Part shown: one piece after another, positions 23,022 to 54,138 of the stretch
How positions within the stretch are numbered: position 1 is the first letter of the stretch
How the letters are laid out: every line of letters starts with the position of its first letter
NCBI GenBank assembly: GCA_036517115.1
Contig: DATDYB010000005.1
Location: forward strand, 18,970-82,969
DNA: 64,000 nucleotides
From: Minisyncoccota bacterium
GTDB lineage: Bacteria > Patescibacteriota > Minisyncoccia > Phycocordibacterales > PALSA-1337
Reading direction: 5' to 3'
The notes under the pieces: generated by a model
The model's database searches: none
The model's input: the letters and a program-made list of their open reading frames with translations, nothing else
Told to the model about the DNA's origin: nothing
Program-made: the position numbers and the translations under genes

Positions 23022-23088
23022 CACCCCGACAAAAAAGTTCGCGCTACGGGCCGACAGGCCTCCGTCTACGAACTTTTTTGTCGGGGTG
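23022..23088. repeat. intergenic palindromic element C (family 1): CACCCCGAC-AAAAAA-GTTCGCGCTACGGGCCGACAGGCCTCCGTCTACGAAC-TTTTTT-GTCGGGGTG
   Basis: Read directly. Same A6/core/T6 architecture and core as element B, with a different but perfectly compensatory outer stem. A short direct repeat CTCCA flanks it on both sides. Lies between the RT stop and the next gene. Confidence 0.6.
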
Positions 23089-23093
23089 CTCCA

Positions 23094-24086
23094 CTACCTC
23101 TGCTTTTTTGTGATCTGTTGTTGGAGTTTATACCCCTCCCCATGCTTCAAAAGCCCGAGATAGGAAGCGATTGTTGCTGTGCTTGGTTTATCATAGCACC
23201 GCGCAAACATTCTCCTCTTTGTTGTCGTTCTTAACACTCGGTGTGTGGGGAAATGCACCCAGCCGAGGAAGTCCACGCCAGAGGCAAGGGTTTTTATGAA
23301 TACTTTGTCAGGGTGAAGTGACAATTTCAATCGTTCTGAAAGAAATGTGCCGATCTTCACTATCAGATCTTCTAGGTATGCTTTACTGTGGTGCAGAATG
23401 ACGAAGTCATCGGCATAACGAATGTAGTACTTCACTTTCTGTGTATGTTTCACCCACTGATCGAACTCGTTCATGTAGACATTGACTAGGAGTTGGGAGG
23501 TGAGGTTGCCGAGAGGGAGACCAACTCCGAGAGTAGCACTATGGAAACTCTCGATGATATTCTGAAGAAGCCGAAGGATGTCGCTGTCGGATATGTGTTT
23601 TTCGAGAATTGAGAGCAATATCGGCTGATCGATAGAGGCGAAGAACTTGCGGATGTCGCATTTTAATACGAAGCATGTCCGATAACCACAATCCTCCACC
23701 CATGTCGAAAATGACGTAAACCTTCGGAGTGCTTTATGCGTCCCCTTACCCAACCTGCATGAATATGAATCATAGATAAATATTTGGTTAAAAAATGGAT
23801 ATAGCGCACGGAACACTGCGTGATGAACTATTCTGTCTCTCACACTTGCCTTATGGATGTCTCTCGGCTTCGGATCATTTATTTTGAAATGTCCGTATCC
23901 GCCATGTTGATAACTTCTTGATGATAGATCTTGTTGTAATGACATAAGATTCGGCATGAGACGGAGGCCGAACTCTTGAACGTCCGCTCTCTTCGTTTTT
24001 CCTTTTAAAAAAATTCTCCACGAGGTAAGTAGATTTTCCAAAGAGATGATATTCTTATACTGATGAGTAAAATAAACTTGATGCAT
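23094..24086 (-). CDS. diversity-generating retroelement reverse transcriptase
   Basis: N-terminus YKNIISLENLLTSWRIFLKGKTKRADVQEF...KINDPKPRDIHKASVRDRIVHHAV. Motif GLPLGNLTSQLLVNVY (the [ILV]GxxxSQ variant characteristic of DGR RTs, instead of QGxxxSP). YADDFVILHH catalytic motif. ~330 aa. The ORF track starts at GTG 24152; the in-frame ATG at 24086 (MHQVYF...) avoids overlap with avd. Confidence 0.85.
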   Translation of the reverse strand: MHQVYFTHQYKNIISLENLLTSWRIFLKGKTKRADVQEFGLRLMPNLMSLQQDLSSRSYQHGGYGHFKINDPKPRDIHKASVRDRIVHHAVFRALYPFFNQIFIYDSYSCRLGKGTHKALRRFTSFSTWVEDCGYRTCFVLKCDIRKFFASIDQPILLSILEKHISDSDILRLLQNIIESFHSATLGVGLPLGNLTSQLLVNVYMNEFDQWVKHTQKVKYYIRYADDFVILHHSKAYLEDLIVKIGTFLSERLKLSLHPDKVFIKTLASGVDFLGWVHFPTHRVLRTTTKRRMFARCYDKPSTATIASYLGLLKHGEGYKLQQQITKKQR

Positions 24087-24117
24087 TCCATAAATAGTAC
24101 CCACCCCCCGCACGGTT

Positions 24118-24465
24118 TTGCCAGTGCTTGAGAAATTGAAAGATGGATACACATTGTGGCACAGATGTCACGAACTGATGCCAAAAACACAGCGATATTC
24201 ACTTGGCAACAGAATTGATAAATTGTTTATAGAGGCGATCGAGGCGACAGCAACGGCAGCTTTCCTTCCCCCACAAGAAAAGGTGGCGTGGGTTCGTTTA
24301 GCACTTCGAAAAACCGACGTCATACAAGTGTTATTATTGATCTGCTTAGAGACTGATTCATTCGAAGAAAAGCATTTTGTTGATGTATCGATGAAGCTTG
24401 CGGAGATTGGTAAAGATCTAGGCGGGTGGAACGGCAAACTTACAAAACAAAACTCCGGCGGATAA
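24118..24465 (+). CDS. Avd-like accessory variability determinant (four-helix-bundle protein)
   Basis: ~115 aa. ...QRYSLGNRIDKLFIEAIEA... and C-terminal ...EEKHFVDVSMKLAEIGKDLGGWNGKL, which resembles the bAvd C-terminus (..AEVGRILGSW..). TTG start in the track, and other starts are possible. Divergent from the RT. Confidence 0.65.
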   Translation: MPVLEKLKDGYTLWHRCHELMPKTQRYSLGNRIDKLFIEAIEATATAAFLPPQEKVAWVRLALRKTDVIQVLLLICLETDSFEEKHFVDVSMKLAEIGKDLGGWNGKLTKQNSGG

Positions 24466-24487
24466 ATCCTACGGAGAAATGAATAAG

Positions 24488-24615
24488 TTGCGGAAGGACG
24501 AAGGCGAAACCGCCATTGTCGTTCCAGTTGTTGTCCGGCCTATCGTAGTTGGCGTTCAAACAGCGACCGTCATTGTCACGGTTCGCATAGAGCACGTTCG
24601 GATCGCCGTCGGAAT
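24488..24615 (-). repeat. DGR template repeat (TR), 128 bp, non-coding
   Basis: Near-identical to 24931-25058. At all ~23 mismatch positions the TR carries T on the + strand (A in the coding sense of the minus-strand target). In that frame the TR reads S D G D P N V L Y A N R D N D G R C L N A N Y D R P D N N W N D N G G F A F V L P Q (Asn AAC/AAT-rich). Confidence 0.85.
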
Positions 24616-24844
24616 GCGCGAGATTTCATCCCTGCAACTGTAAAATCATAGCTAGTTTTTGTAATTTTAAATTACCCAAAACCCCGCGCCAAGTAGCTTC
24701 ATTTTTTTAAAGAAGTGTCTACATGTACCCTCCGTCTAGAATGATAATTCTAAAGACGCTCTCAATACATGGATACTGGTTTCGGCAGTCCTGACATTCT
24801 GATGCCAAAACAGATTCGCCTACTTCCGTCTGTAAGTATATATG

Positions 24845-24869
24845 AAAAAACCTCGACGTGTGTCGAGGT
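24845..24869 (-). terminator. hairpin ACCTCGAC-GTGT-GTCGAGGT followed by T6 (on minus strand) ~60 nt downstream of the VR/stop; target-gene terminator and possible DGR-associated stem-loop
   Basis: Read directly. A6 on the plus strand precedes the stem. Confidence 0.5.
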
Positions 24870-24900
24870 TGTGTAAAAACCAAAGCCAAGGGACCGAGGG

Positions 24901-25659
24901 CTAGGTTTGAGAAACCGAAGTCGAGGGCTCTTGCGGAAGGACGAAGGCGAAACCGCCATTGCCGTACCAGCTGAAGCCCGGCCCACCGTAGAAGGCGTCC
25001 AAACAGCGACCGTCATCGTCACGGCCCGCACAGAGCACGCTCGGATCGCCGTCGGAATCATTGATCGCGTCATGCATCGCTACGATGTACCAGAGACCGA
25101 GTTCTTCGAGTTCGGCATCGGTGAGAAGGTCTCGAATAAGCGGACCAACTTCCCAATGAGGTGTCTTCCACCCCCGAACCTCTGCGTCTTTGCGGATTGT
25201 TTTGGTGTACCGATCCTTGTTCTTGATCTTATTACCGGGCCGGACAGCGATGTTATACGTCACGCCGGTGGTAGGTGCGTCCGTTGCCCTCCTTAGAACA
25301 TTCTTGCCCCAGTCGGAAACGCGATAGGGCTGCCCCTTGGCATCCTTCTTTTCCTTTTCGAAATAGGTAATCCACTGTTCATTGGTACGACCGTTGGAAG
25401 TGACTTCGAAGTAAATAGTTCCTTCGGAGTCAATTACCCATTTGGAACCCGCCGGAATGGCAGGAATGACTGGCTTGATCGTTTCGCCGCTTTGATCAAT
25501 GAGTACGAGCTTGGCTTTGCCTCTTACGAGCATCGATACAGCCGTGAAGTTTTCTTCTGTCGACAACCATTCAACGTCATTGGTGTCGCCGTCGTTGCGT
25601 TTAATAGCCGTCTCCAATTTGTGACCTGCACCTTGAGTTAGTACGAACGTGCTGTTCAT
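24901..25659 (-). CDS. DGR target (variable) protein with C-terminal C-type-lectin/FGE-like variable region
   Basis: 252 aa. C-terminal ...GLWYIVAMHDAINDSDGDPSVLCAGRDDDGRCLDAFYGGPGFSWYGNGGFAFVLPQ contains the VR. No obvious signal peptide. N-terminal domain unrecognised. Confidence 0.8.
   Translation of the reverse strand: MNSTFVLTQGAGHKLETAIKRNDGDTNDVEWLSTEENFTAVSMLVRGKAKLVLIDQSGETIKPVIPAIPAGSKWVIDSEGTIYFEVTSNGRTNEQWITYFEKEKKDAKGQPYRVSDWGKNVLRRATDAPTTGVTYNIAVRPGNKIKNKDRYTKTIRKDAEVRGWKTPHWEVGPLIRDLLTDAELEELGLWYIVAMHDAINDSDGDPSVLCAGRDDDGRCLDAFYGGPGFSWYGNGGFAFVLPQEPSTSVSQT
24931..25058 (-). repeat. DGR variable repeat (VR) at the 3' end of the target gene
   Basis: Encodes ...DSDGDPSVLCAGRDDDGRCLDAFYGGPGFSWYGNGGFAFVLPQ. 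Ends 28 nt before the stop codon. Differs from the TR only at TR-adenine positions. Confidence 0.85.
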
Positions 25660-35685: not shown

Positions 35686-37545
35686 TTACTTCAAAAAATT
35701 CTCCCGCCATAATTCAAAGACCATAAGGTTCCAGAGTTTTTTACGATTATCGCGCGCTCCGTCCATGTGTTCGCATTTCAATCTCTCTACGAATTCATAC
35801 TCGAAAATGCCCGCTTTTTTTATTCTGTCCTTTGACAACAACTCCTCGCACAATGATCGAAGAGGACCGCGAAGCCACGTTCCCAATGGAATACCGAAAC
35901 CTTTCTTTTTCCTCCACACAATATCATGCGGCAAATATCGCTCCATCAGTTTTTTCAATATATATTTTGTCTTGAGACCTTTTATTTTGTAGTGGTAAGG
36001 CAATGTGTTTACGAATTCCACCACATCTTTGTCCAGAAACGGAGCCCGCACTTCCAAACCAGAAAGCATGCTCGCACGATCGACTTTCGCCAACACTCCA
36101 TCCATCATGTACGTTCGTTGATACAAGAAAAGATTCTTATTCCGGTCGTCGGAAAAATTACTCTTGCTGTAACGCGCAATGTCATCAAAAGTTTTAACTT
36201 CCGGGGGCTCTCGTAACACCAAGAGGTCTTTCTTTTCTTCATCACTAAATGTCTGGAGCCACGCTTGGTGCCGATAGAAGATGTTTTTTTCACGCACCCC
36301 GTCCATGAACTTTTTGAGTTTAAAATCGACGCTGAAATTTGCATGAGACACCGGAAGGCGTCCCACAGCGTAAGCAAGGATGTGAGCGAAGGTGTCTCCA
36401 AAATGAGAGAGAAGACCCCAAAGCTTTTCTGCCTGAAACGTCGGATAGCCGGCGAACAGCTCATCGCCGCCGTCGCCTCCTAAAGCTACCGTGACTTCCC
36501 TCTTGGTCTCCCGCGAAAGCACATAGGTAGGAACGATCGAAGCGTCGGCGAGCGGCTCGTCGAGCCTCGGAAATATTTCGGGTATGGCGGCAAGAAGATC
36601 ACTGGGCGTGACGCGGTAGACATGGTGATCGGTGCCAAGCGAGCGAGCGACTACTTCCGCGTAACGAGATTCATCAAAACTTGCATCGTCGAAGCCGATG
36701 GAGAATGTTGTAAGCGGCACGGACGACCGGCGCGCGGCATAGTAGGCGACGGTGGAGCTGTCAAGCCCGCCGGAGAGGAAAATGCCGAGCGGCACGTCGG
36801 ACATAAGCCGGCGCTCTGTGGCATTCGAGATCAAGGTGTCGAGCTTCTCCATTGCATCGCCAAAGGGAATATCCATCTCCTTACACTCAGGCTTCCAAAA
36901 CGTTTCCTGACGGACGATGCCATTTTTGTAGGCGAGATAGGTGCCCGCTTCGAGCTTGTACACCCCTTTAAAGATCGAATGCGGCGTCGGAACAAAATCA
37001 TAGCTTAGATATTTATACAGAGCCTCCTCATTGAGCGCACGCGTAAACAAAGAGTGTGCCGAAAACGCCTTGGCTTCCGACGCGAAAAGAAGTGTGCCGC
37101 CGAATATCCCCCAGTAGAGAGGCTTCTTGCCCATCGGATCCCGCGCAATAAAAAGCTCTTTTTTCTTAAAGTCATAGAGCGCAATGGCGAACATGCCGGA
37201 AAGTTTATCGAAGCACCGCTCGCCATATTTTTCATACAACCGAAGAATGACTTCAGTATCGGTCCCGCTTTGCCACTGAGAGGCCTTGCCTCTCAGTTCG
37301 TCTTTTAGCTCTTTAAAGTTGTATATTTCACCATTAAATACGATAGCGAGACTCTTATCTTCCATGAACATCGGCTGGGCTCCCTTGTCGCTCGTATCGA
37401 TAATGGAAAGCCTAGCGTGACCCAGGCCGATGCCTTCGTGGTGAAAAGCGCCTTGCTGGTCAGGGCCACGGTGTTTGATCTTCTCGACCATGCCTTCGAG
37501 CTCCCGTCTGTTCCCATATCCCATAAATCCAGTGATGCCACACAT
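35686..37545 (-). CDS. asnB: asparagine synthetase (glutamine-hydrolysing)-family amidotransferase
   Basis: 619 aa. N-terminal MCGITGF (Ntn Cys2), ...SGGLDSS... PP-loop. Full-length AsnB-like. Confidence 0.85.
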   Translation of the reverse strand: MCGITGFMGYGNRRELEGMVEKIKHRGPDQQGAFHHEGIGLGHARLSIIDTSDKGAQPMFMEDKSLAIVFNGEIYNFKELKDELRGKASQWQSGTDTEVILRLYEKYGERCFDKLSGMFAIALYDFKKKELFIARDPMGKKPLYWGIFGGTLLFASEAKAFSAHSLFTRALNEEALYKYLSYDFVPTPHSIFKGVYKLEAGTYLAYKNGIVRQETFWKPECKEMDIPFGDAMEKLDTLISNATERRLMSDVPLGIFLSGGLDSSTVAYYAARRSSVPLTTFSIGFDDASFDESRYAEVVARSLGTDHHVYRVTPSDLLAAIPEIFPRLDEPLADASIVPTYVLSRETKREVTVALGGDGGDELFAGYPTFQAEKLWGLLSHFGDTFAHILAYAVGRLPVSHANFSVDFKLKKFMDGVREKNIFYRHQAWLQTFSDEEKKDLLVLREPPEVKTFDDIARYSKSNFSDDRNKNLFLYQRTYMMDGVLAKVDRASMLSGLEVRAPFLDKDVVEFVNTLPYHYKIKGLKTKYILKKLMERYLPHDIVWRKKKGFGIPLGTWLRGPLRSLCEELLSKDRIKKAGIFEYEFVERLKCEHMDGARDNRKKLWNLMVFELWRENFLK

Positions 37546-52908: not shown

Positions 52909-54138
52909 ATGGACGAGCTTAGAACAACACTCAAAAAAAGACCGATCGTATACGTTACTCGCGACATCGAGCGGGCACTCGGTTTCTTGCCTTCGGATGG
53001 CTATTTTGTAATTAGCAACCGTACCAGCTACGCAGAAAAGATACTCACCAAACATCCCAACAATGTTGTACTCATTGATCGCGTGGATAGTGGCATGCTT
53101 GATACTCATGAACTACTATCCACCTCTGAAGTAGCCACCACAATTTCAAAGCACGCCGCACACGTCATGGTGTTTAAAAATACTTCGGCTATTGAAACGA
53201 TTTGTAAAGAAAGGGGCTGGAGTTTACTTAACCCAAAAGCCGCTCTTGCTGAAATGATTGAAAATAAAATAACTCAAGTTGCATGGCTCGGCAAACTCAA
53301 AAAATTCCTACCACCGCACCGCATCACTACAGGGAAAGATTGTGTATGGAGCAATACACCCTTTATCGTTCAATACGCGCATGCTCACACCGGTGAAGGT
53401 ACGATCCTCGTCAATAACAATGAAACAGCGGAAAACATCCGAGAAACATTCCCTCATCGCGAGGTACGAATCACCGACTTCGTCGATGGTCCTGTATTTA
53501 CGAGCAATAACATCGTCACAGAGGAAGAAGTGCTCCTCGGAAACGTAAGTTACCAGATCACCGGTCTCTCACCATTTACCGAAAATAAATTCTCTACGAT
53601 CGGCAACGACTGGAACTTTGCAACAAGAACACTCTCGCCTACTCAAAAAAGCGAGATCGAAAAAATGGTCCGGGAGATCGGAAAAAGAATGAGAGATGAT
53701 GGATGGAAGGGTCTTTTTGGCGTCGATGTAATCCTCGACTCAAAAACAGGAAAAATATACTTGATTGAAATCAACGCACGCCAACCGGCTTCTACGACAT
53801 ATGAATCACAACTCCAAAAAAAATCTAACCCTTTTAGCATTTCCGTATTCGAGGCTCATCTCGCTTCCCTCCTCGGTCTTTCAACCTTCAACCTTCAACC
53901 TTCAACTATTCTTGATGGCGCTCAAATCATCGCCCGTCATACCAACGCTCACATCGACACAGGAGGACTCGCGACAAAACTTCGCCAAATGAATCTTACT
54001 GTTATAGAATATGAAAATAACGCCCATAATGCAGACGCGTTACGAATTCAAAGCGGCCATTCACTAATCGAGAATGTGAACATACTGAACGATACCGGTA
54101 AACAGATTGCCTCCATCTTAAATCCTCATGGAAACTAA
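52909..54138 (+). CDS. ATP-grasp domain protein (ligase of unknown specificity)
   Basis: ...WKGLFGVDVILDSKTGKIYLIEINARQP... is an ATP-grasp core motif. The track start 52873 is probably over-extended; MDELRTTLKK at about 52909. Confidence 0.65.
   Translation: MDELRTTLKKRPIVYVTRDIERALGFLPSDGYFVISNRTSYAEKILTKHPNNVVLIDRVDSGMLDTHELLSTSEVATTISKHAAHVMVFKNTSAIETICKERGWSLLNPKAALAEMIENKITQVAWLGKLKKFLPPHRITTGKDCVWSNTPFIVQYAHAHTGEGTILVNNNETAENIRETFPHREVRITDFVDGPVFTSNNIVTEEEVLLGNVSYQITGLSPFTENKFSTIGNDWNFATRTLSPTQKSEIEKMVREIGKRMRDDGWKGLFGVDVILDSKTGKIYLIEINARQPASTTYESQLQKKSNPFSISVFEAHLASLLGLSTFNLQPSTILDGAQIIARHTNAHIDTGGLATKLRQMNLTVIEYENNAHNADALRIQSGHSLIENVNILNDTGKQIASILNPHGN

Follow-up and report, generated by a model that had tools for sequence, protein, structure and literature searches.

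Diversity-generating retroelements (DGRs) have been catalogued in tens of thousands and are especially frequent in the ultra-small Patescibacteria within the candidate phyla radiation (CPR). The described systems closest to the one reported here are the DGR of Bordetella phage BPP-1, which has the gene order mtd-avd-TR-brt, and the DGRs of the CPR. In BPP-1, the first stem-loop after the template repeat (TR) binds the accessory variability determinant (Avd), and cDNA synthesis is brought to a stop by a duplex located at the TR's 5' edge (Handa et al., bioRxiv 10.1101/2023.10.23.563531). In the CPR set, 90% of the elements have architecture B3, 'TR-(avd)-RT', in which RT is the reverse transcriptase (Wu et al. 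2018, NAR 46:11, PMC5758913). A cassette of this kind is found in a 64-kb window, i.e. the whole stretch of contig DATDYB010000005.1 (assembly GCA_036517115.1, positions 18,970 to 82,969) that was analyzed. The region very probably represents a complete CPR-type DGR of architecture B3 within a glycan-biosynthesis locus of a member of the Paceibacterota. This DGR is ordinary for its lineage; what the locus adds is a model of the TR RNA and a conserved repeat tract between avd and RT.

Support for a complete DGR, which the original prediction had proposed, comes from the adenine-only differences between TR and variable repeat (VR), the RT match, an Avd, and a C-type-lectin-like target. Both 128-nt repeats were recovered by a direct-repeat search at exactly the coordinates given before. 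On ungapped alignment, they differ at 16 positions and agree at 112, which replaces the earlier count of approximately 23 mismatches and 105 identities. The proposed adenine specificity held when the mismatches of the pairwise alignment were tabulated: at all 16 positions, the TR carries a T on the plus strand corresponding to an A in the coding sense. At these positions, the VR has the C (11 cases) and the A (5 cases) on the plus strand that had been described, but never the G that had also been claimed, so that the coding-sense changes from TR to VR are A>G (11) and A>T (5). With 31 T residues among 128 positions, the hypergeometric probability that 16 of 16 mismatches fall on T is P = 3.2e-12. 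As predicted, Asn codons are abundant in the TR, where AAC and AAT make up 9 of 42 codons. Relative to the 252-aa target open reading frame (ORF), 30 of the 31 TR adenines are located at codon positions 1 or 2, and all 13 VR codons that are changed relative to the TR are changed non-synonymously. The VR does not consist of the last 43 codons of the target gene, as had been stated, since nine further codons precede the stop.

The 3' ends of both repeats form a segment resembling the initiation of mutagenic homing (IMH) sequence. Upstream of this invariant segment, 27 of the TR adenines are found; the four adenines within it are unchanged, and the outermost mismatch before it lies at 24962/24519. 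The segment is free of adenine substitutions, yet it has the same sequence in TR and VR, and the discrimination between IMH and IMH* must therefore rest on flanking sequence. An IMH identical to its IMH* is a case recorded by Wu et al. 2018 (PMC5758913). A third VR-like copy was not found in the window by an adenine-tolerant scan of both strands. A 54-aa ORF on the plus strand (24479-24643) runs antisense to the TR and is annotated as a gene in sibling contigs (e.g., L002, 5017-5181); because this stretch is the non-coding template repeat, the ORF is almost certainly spurious.

Table 1. Position of the cassette components and associated elements in the window.
Feature	Position	Strand	Details
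Inverted repeat	23022..23088		Perfect 20-nt repeat, 27-nt loop, directly after RT stop
DGR reverse transcriptase	23094..24086	minus	330 aa from ATG 24086; RVT_1 2.9e-21; PHROG 1423 1e-103
-10-like hexamer TACTAT (tentative)	24094..24099	minus	Directly after tract, 7 nt before RT ATG
Simple-sequence tract	24100..24109		Between divergent avd and RT starts; G6TG3 on minus strand
avd	24118..24465	plus	115 aa from TTG 24118; PF22296, NF033474, PHROG 3206
3' module of TR RNA	24443..24487	minus	Linker 24487-24477; stem-loop 24476-24453; U-run GUUUUGUUUUG 24452-24443; common to all relatives
Template repeat (TR)	24488..24615	minus (sense)	Non-coding; direct-repeat search and alignment
5' flank of TR RNA	24616..24689	minus	Structured; RNAalifold on 40 loci
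Helix P1	24689-24678 with 24627-24616	minus	12 bp; 3' strand abuts first TR base
Hairpin P2	24675-24671 with 24665-24661	minus	
Hairpin downstream of VR	24849..24870	minus	9-bp stem, ACAC loop, then T-run; 60 nt past VR, 31 nt past stop
Target gene	24901..25659	minus	252 aa; C-type-lectin-like domain, no Pfam/NCBIfam domain
Variable repeat (VR)	24931..25058	minus	Target residues 201-243; direct-repeat search and alignment
VR 3' segment, IMH-like	24931..24961	minus	31 nt, equal to TR 3' end, G+C-rich

The RT carries the motifs LGNLTSQ and YADDFVIL that had been reported for it, and a profile and sequence comparison agrees with the original prediction in favoring a DGR-type enzyme over a group II intron or retron RT. 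Its best solved relative is the 328-aa RT 8ub7 (5e-41), whereas group II intron and retron-type RTs reach about 1e-15; the motif LGNLTSQ aligns with IGSLTSQ of 8ub7. Judged from its sequence, the enzyme is a DGR RT of the [ILV]GxxxSQ type and is closest to the RT of the Bordetella phage DGR. Although the ORF is open upstream as far as GTG 24152, homologs span 96-100% of the 330-aa form.

The neighboring 115-aa ORF contains KLAEIGKDLGGW, as quoted earlier, and searches with Avd models identify it as the predicted Avd by full-length matches to PF22296 (4e-7) and NF033474 (5.5e-12 over the full model length), both with scores below the model cut-offs, and to PHROG 3206 (4e-11). PF22296 is also matched by 25 of 25 Avd orthologs of the clade, the best at 5e-13. 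Sequence and profile searches against solved structures gave no match to Avd chains of the 4DWL type. The avd gene is located between TR and RT, with no other accessory gene, and is encoded on the plus strand, opposite to RT, TR, and target, which are all on the minus strand. The resulting arrangement, target-TR-(avd)-RT, corresponds to B3 among the architectures defined by Wu et al. 2018.

The cassette resembles the CPR DGRs (Wu et al. 2018, PMC5758913) in host lineage, gene order, and reverse-strand avd, in its chromosomal rather than phage-borne location, in its small target without recognizable domains, and in its adenine-specific TR/VR differences; there is no difference in kind. The repeat tract at the avd/RT junction and the structured domain 5' of the TR are not mentioned in the accessible papers. 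With BPP-1 it shares a homologous RT with the I/LGxxxSQ motif, the presence of Avd, a TR of about 130 nt, and a VR at the 3' end of a gene for a C-type-lectin-fold protein. In contrast to BPP-1, avd is inverted and divergent from RT, and the host is cellular instead of a phage. In the source metagenome-assembled genome (MAG), the cassette carries no DGR annotation, the target being labeled 'hypothetical' and the RT 'reverse transcriptase/maturase family'.

The 252-aa target contains FYGGPGFSWYGNGGFAFVLPQ, as had been described. It has no match in Pfam, NCBIfam, or PHROG, and none of approximately 70 target homologs has a precomputed Pfam domain. In the structural model, the N-terminal ~70 residues form low-confidence helices and residues ~71-240 a C-type-lectin-like domain, whose predicted fold aligns over 100-130 residues with Mtd (1yu0), TvpA (2y3c), and FGE-like domains; a Foldseek search of the model against the PDB returned nothing at E < 0.3. 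Of the earlier assignment of the VR as FGE/C-type-lectin-like, the C-type-lectin-like fold is thus supported by the model, whereas a Pfam match to FGE-sulfatase or DUF1566 was not obtained. The 13 diversified residues (207, 210, 212, 215, 221, 223, 225, 226, 228, 229, 230, 232, and 233) coincide with the hypervariable columns across the target protein family. In the model, the residues specified by the VR lie exposed in the C-terminal portion of the C-type-lectin-like domain, and variable residues in the C-terminal part of the target domain are also characteristic of Mtd- and TvpA-type variable proteins. It belongs to a target family that lacks recognizable domains and is confined to Patescibacteria, and of which the cassette gives a well-resolved example.

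For comparison, 80 related loci were fetched, about 45 of which carry the cassette; RNA and junction analyses were performed on 40 loci. In all cassette-bearing loci, the components are arranged as target(+), TR(+), avd(-), RT(+). The TR/VR pairs of these loci span 120-135 nt and have mismatches overwhelmingly at template adenines, and layout and adenine-dominated pattern together recur in about 40 related genomes. Because these relatives share the B3 layout of Wu et al., an avd in inverted orientation and a chromosomal location are the norm of the lineage. The target itself matches a hypothetical protein from a Candidatus Paceibacterota MAG with 100% identity, and the approximately 70 target homologs with a named source and the 80 fetched loci all belong to Patescibacteria or to loosely labeled MAGs. 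An association with phages was rejected, as target relatives are encoded in 217 genome stretches and on only one IMG/VR contig among 2.9 million viral contigs. The glycan-locus setting noted earlier was confirmed: the cassette is flanked by GT2 and GT1/GT4 glycosyltransferases, a GDP-mannose 4,6-dehydratase, a DegT aminotransferase, and a methyltransferase. Approximately 35 of the 80 loci contain target paralogs without adjacent RT, Avd, or TR (e.g., L013, L014, L018-L020, L025, and L026), which may be remote or orphan targets. One Falkowbacteria contig (L043 and L067) has an orphan target copy ~15 kb from a complete cassette.

The TR is bordered on both sides by putative RNA structures that are conserved among the 40 loci. 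On the 5' side, the 3' strand of helix P1 ends 0-3 nt before the TR; a third helix, P3, is present in most relatives and absent from the window, L038, and L082. Pairing in this 5' domain is kept in 96.1% of cells, compared to 30-57% with the partner strand slid, and the number of compensatory cells is 144 as opposed to 42 in shuffles, none of 500 shuffles being as high. On the 3' side, the stem-loop of the window reads CUCCG-UA-GGA-UUUA-UCC-GC-CGGAG, and its counterparts in the relatives have about 9 bp and a variable apex. In this stem-loop, 91.8% of cells retain pairing as opposed to 33-60% with the partner slid by 1-3 columns, with 55 compensatory cells versus 16.5 in shuffles (again 0/500 as high). 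The GUUUU core of the U-run that follows is invariant and the remainder nearly so. The avd stop codon is located inside the loop of the 3' stem-loop, and the last Avd codons (…TKQNSGG*; 24443-24465, plus strand) run antisense to the U-run and the stem-loop. Because the U-run is kept even at third-codon positions of avd, this conservation suggests that an element of the RNA or DNA, and not the Avd protein tail, is under selection. In the 170 nt past the U-run, which are antisense to avd, RNAalifold found no consensus structure and the region varies as coding sequence. None of the TR-flanking structures matches an Rfam family.

The two structures correspond in position to elements of the BPP-1 RNA. 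The 3' stem-loop directly follows the TR, as does the Avd-binding stem-loop of BPP-1, and P1 occupies the 5' edge of the TR like the cPRT-stop duplex of BPP-1. However, the 5'-edge duplex is formed here by two upstream segments, whereas that of BPP-1 consists of one upstream and one downstream segment. For a duplex of the latter kind, AAUGAAGA and UCUUCAUU are complementary, but two compensatory and two wobble cases stand against at least three broken ones. A primer duplex between the TR 3' end and a UUG(U/C)(A/G) motif after the U-run was rejected, since no convincing covariation was apparent by eye. The model is a covariation-supported TR RNA for the inverted-avd (B3) architecture and provides a defined RNA of ~250 nt for reconstitution.

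By analogy with the Bordetella phage system, this ~250-nt non-coding RNA would be a minus-strand transcript that has a separate start and a terminator-like end, and would comprise the structured 5' domain (the helix abutting the TR and a hairpin), the TR, and the 3' stem-loop with its U-run. RT and avd would be transcribed separately from it; separate transcription in split-strand cassettes was also concluded by Wu et al. 2018 (PMC5758913). An RT-Avd complex would then bind the TR RNA, where Avd probably contacts the 3' stem-loop, prime itself, and copy the TR into cDNA with misincorporation opposite adenines, and the helix at the TR 5' edge would probably halt cDNA synthesis. Subsequently, the cDNA would replace the VR, with the G+C-rich 3' segment common to both repeats and perhaps also the hairpin downstream of the VR as guides. 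In this way, up to 27 adenine-templated positions could be re-randomized, and with them the surface with which the 252-aa protein binds its ligand.

The tract between avd and RT is the one difference that recurs among the sibling contigs, whose identity is otherwise 99.3% or higher (for most of them at least 99.9%): on the minus strand it reads G6TG3 in the window and in L003, and G10, G11, or G12 elsewhere. Simple-sequence repeats (SSRs) are present at 35 of the 40 related avd/RT junctions (2.2 kb in total), within avd-RT spacers of 12-90 nt. They consist of poly-G of 8-15 in 26 loci, tetranucleotide units in six, and heptanucleotide units in three, with up to 11 copies. The units other than poly-G, i.e., (TGGT)n, (CTGA)n, (GATT)n, (GGCT)n, (GCTGATT)n, and (GGCGGCT)n, show no relationship from one lineage to another, and the unit length is 1, 4, or 7 and never a multiple of three. 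G/C homopolymers of at least eight are nearly absent from about 700 kb of surrounding sequence, where their density is about 80 times lower, and most of the background exceptions listed are further avd/RT junctions that were missed by the filter. The window contains no G/C homopolymer of at least seven; its only other non-trivial tandem repeats are TTCAACC x3 (53880-53900) and AGCG x3 (36638-36649).

These features could indicate that the tract makes the avd/RT machinery phase-variable and thereby places this patescibacterial DGR clade under stochastic on/off control, a tentative reading to which we give somewhat less than an even chance. Tract length would change by slipped-strand mispairing, which would shift the avd frame and/or the geometry of the RT promoter, and only a subpopulation would run mutagenic retrohoming at any one time. 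The tract resembles the SSR contingency loci of Haemophilus, Neisseria, and Campylobacter in having a homopolymeric G/C or tetranucleotide tract that lies in a gene's promoter or 5' end, in its unit length, which is not a multiple of three, and in length variation among near-identical genomes. However, those loci control surface structures, whereas the controlled gene would here be the mutagenesis machinery (avd and/or RT), and the hosts are uncultured Patescibacteria. If true, a contingency locus would control a targeted hypermutator, which would be a simple restraint on the cost of DGR mutagenesis and would explain why the VR is frozen in some populations, the present one among them, while sister populations diversify. 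A link between DGRs and SSRs or phase variation was not found in the accessible literature; a mention in Paul et al. 2017 (Nat Microbiol 2:17045) is possible.

Alternatively, the tract may be fixed and serve, for instance, as an insulator, a ribosome-binding-like G-run, or the spacer of a promoter, with the length differences reflecting homopolymer sequencing or assembly noise; this explanation is also possible, if somewhat doubtful. Poly-G is the commonest kind of tract (26/35), and runs of G10-G12 are error-prone in sequencing. Length is constant in four contigs of species C, and species A shows only substitutions and no length change; two species other than the window's species and species B, retrieved via their RT, have poly-G at the junction with constant length in the contigs shown. 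In species B, in contrast, G10 is found in seven contigs and G11 in three, and for two species, independent assemblies repeatedly contain length variants. Unrelated repeats at the same position across lineages, where the repetitiveness is kept and not the sequence, also speak against a fixed element, as does the absence of unit lengths that are multiples of three. The reading frames point in both directions. A start codon that directly follows the tract shares the frame of avd in seven of nine non-homopolymer cases, whereas an in-frame ATG beyond the tract is found in about a third of the poly-G loci, as by chance; a purely translational switch is thus not established. With the 10-nt tract of the window, neither the ATG at 24063 nor that at 24081 shares the avd frame; both do so only in the G12 variants, for which gene callers report a 134-aa Avd from ATG 24063. 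The hexamer listed in Table 1 was not picked up by a consensus promoter scan, and the geometry poly-G/TAnnAT/7 nt/RT ATG is also found in L027, L034, L043, L046, L078, and L089. This arrangement would be compatible with the tract acting as the spacer of an RT promoter.

Several points weigh against the reading of the cassette as a complete, functional DGR. The Avd scores remain under the curated cut-offs (Pfam, 30.9 versus 40; NCBIfam, 45.9 versus 80). On its 3' side, the TR RNA has a structured flank of about 45 nt, far less than the 140-nt spacer needed in BPP-1, and neither a priming site or priming adenosine nor an RT-binding stem-loop was identified; for these reasons, the RNA mechanism proposed above is an extrapolation. 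No secure promoter of the TR RNA was found, the sole consensus match lying inside helix P1. In addition, the tract in the window is interrupted, and one VR allele is shared by 12 contigs of the window's species from at least seven samples. Regarding the promoter, the sigma-70-like site at 24692-24664 was rejected because it is located within P1 and P2, which must be part of the RNA, and TAGACA/GCTACT (24721-24716/24697-24692) is a tentative alternative.

The single VR allele is partly a circular result, as the sibling contigs were first retrieved by exact identity of the target. Non-circular support comes from the 90%-identity cluster of the target, which has two members that differ by one residue outside the VR and together occur on 12 contigs, and from look-ups of RT variants, which returned the same contigs. 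A sister element in the same sample series, which was retrieved via its RT (63% identical, P0076; L089-L098, positions 446-572), has six VR alleles in ten near-identical contigs from different samples, and 24 of its 25 variable columns are at TR adenines. This close relative of the window element diversifies in situ, and diversification in the clade is thus ongoing. For the window element, the repeats document past activity, and the 12 contigs show no VR heterogeneity that would point to ongoing mutagenic retrohoming. Since the tract is interrupted and the VR is the same in 12 contigs, the window copy may currently be quiescent. One sibling contig, L003 (ERZ27254767), has two substitutions at the equivalents of window positions 24499 and 24484 with an unchanged VR. 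The former is a G>A exchange at the TR 3' end inside the invariant segment, the latter lies just past the TR; within the population, the TR is thus subject to some variation as well.

A more far-reaching explanation is that the cassette is a frozen relic, once active as its 16 A-to-N differences indicate, now silent, and with a VR that is an ordinary fixed segment. The uniform VR of the window's species beside a sister element with six alleles in the same sample series would fit this explanation, as would the substitution that breaks the tract in the window and L003, the missing helix P3, and the upstream ATGs that are out of frame with avd. Nevertheless, a relic is rather unlikely. The ORFs of RT, Avd, and target are intact, the TR retains all of its features, P1, P2, and the 3' stem-loop are intact and fully paired, and P3 is also missing from L038 and L082, whose cassettes look functional. 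Consensus assemblies conceal minority variants, and a strongly selected VR allele would give the same picture; species B likewise has a single allele in nine contigs and one variant contig. The diversifying and non-diversifying sister elements in the same samples form a natural contrast.

An origin of the RT from a group II intron, a retron, or a defense RT system, with a repeat pair that is merely an unrelated diverged duplication, has practically no probability left: the group II intron RT/maturase model TIGR04416 is indeed the top NCBIfam match and agrees with the public RT/maturase label, but its 136 bits are far under the cut-off of 300 (retron RT model, 54.6 bits versus 235), and this origin is refuted by the match to the bRT-like 8ub7, which is 26 orders of magnitude better than that of any intron or retron RT, by adenine-only mismatches with P = 3e-12 under random divergence, by the Avd gene adjoining the RT, and by the absence of any group II intron, retron msr/msd, or other Rfam family at the gathering threshold from the window, in which tRNA and tmRNA are also absent.

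The hairpin that had been placed just beyond the VR exists, although its actual distance from the VR is 60 nt. Most of 39 relatives have a comparable hairpin at a median of +53 nt from the VR, in which a stem, usually of 13-16 bp, is combined with a 4-nt loop and a T-run. The hairpins described by Guo et al. 2011 for BPP-1-type elements have G+C-rich stems of 7-10 bp and GRNA loops and are located 4-34 bp from the VR. The form, a 9-bp stem with a 4-nt loop, is thus alike, whereas the distance, the ACAC loop, and the T-run differ. The T-run makes the hairpin a candidate for a plain terminator; it is likely to be the terminator of the target gene and possibly serves, by analogy, as a DGR target-recognition hairpin. 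At the other end of the cassette, the inverted repeat that follows the RT stop, whose loop holds a mini-hairpin GGCC-GACA-GGCC, is probably a terminator bounding the cassette. Downstream of RT, the species B contigs L100-L104 encode an IS1595-family transposase and a DNA methylase, and L099 encodes SIMPL, SecE, and NusG. Cassettes of different species occupy unrelated chromosomal contexts.

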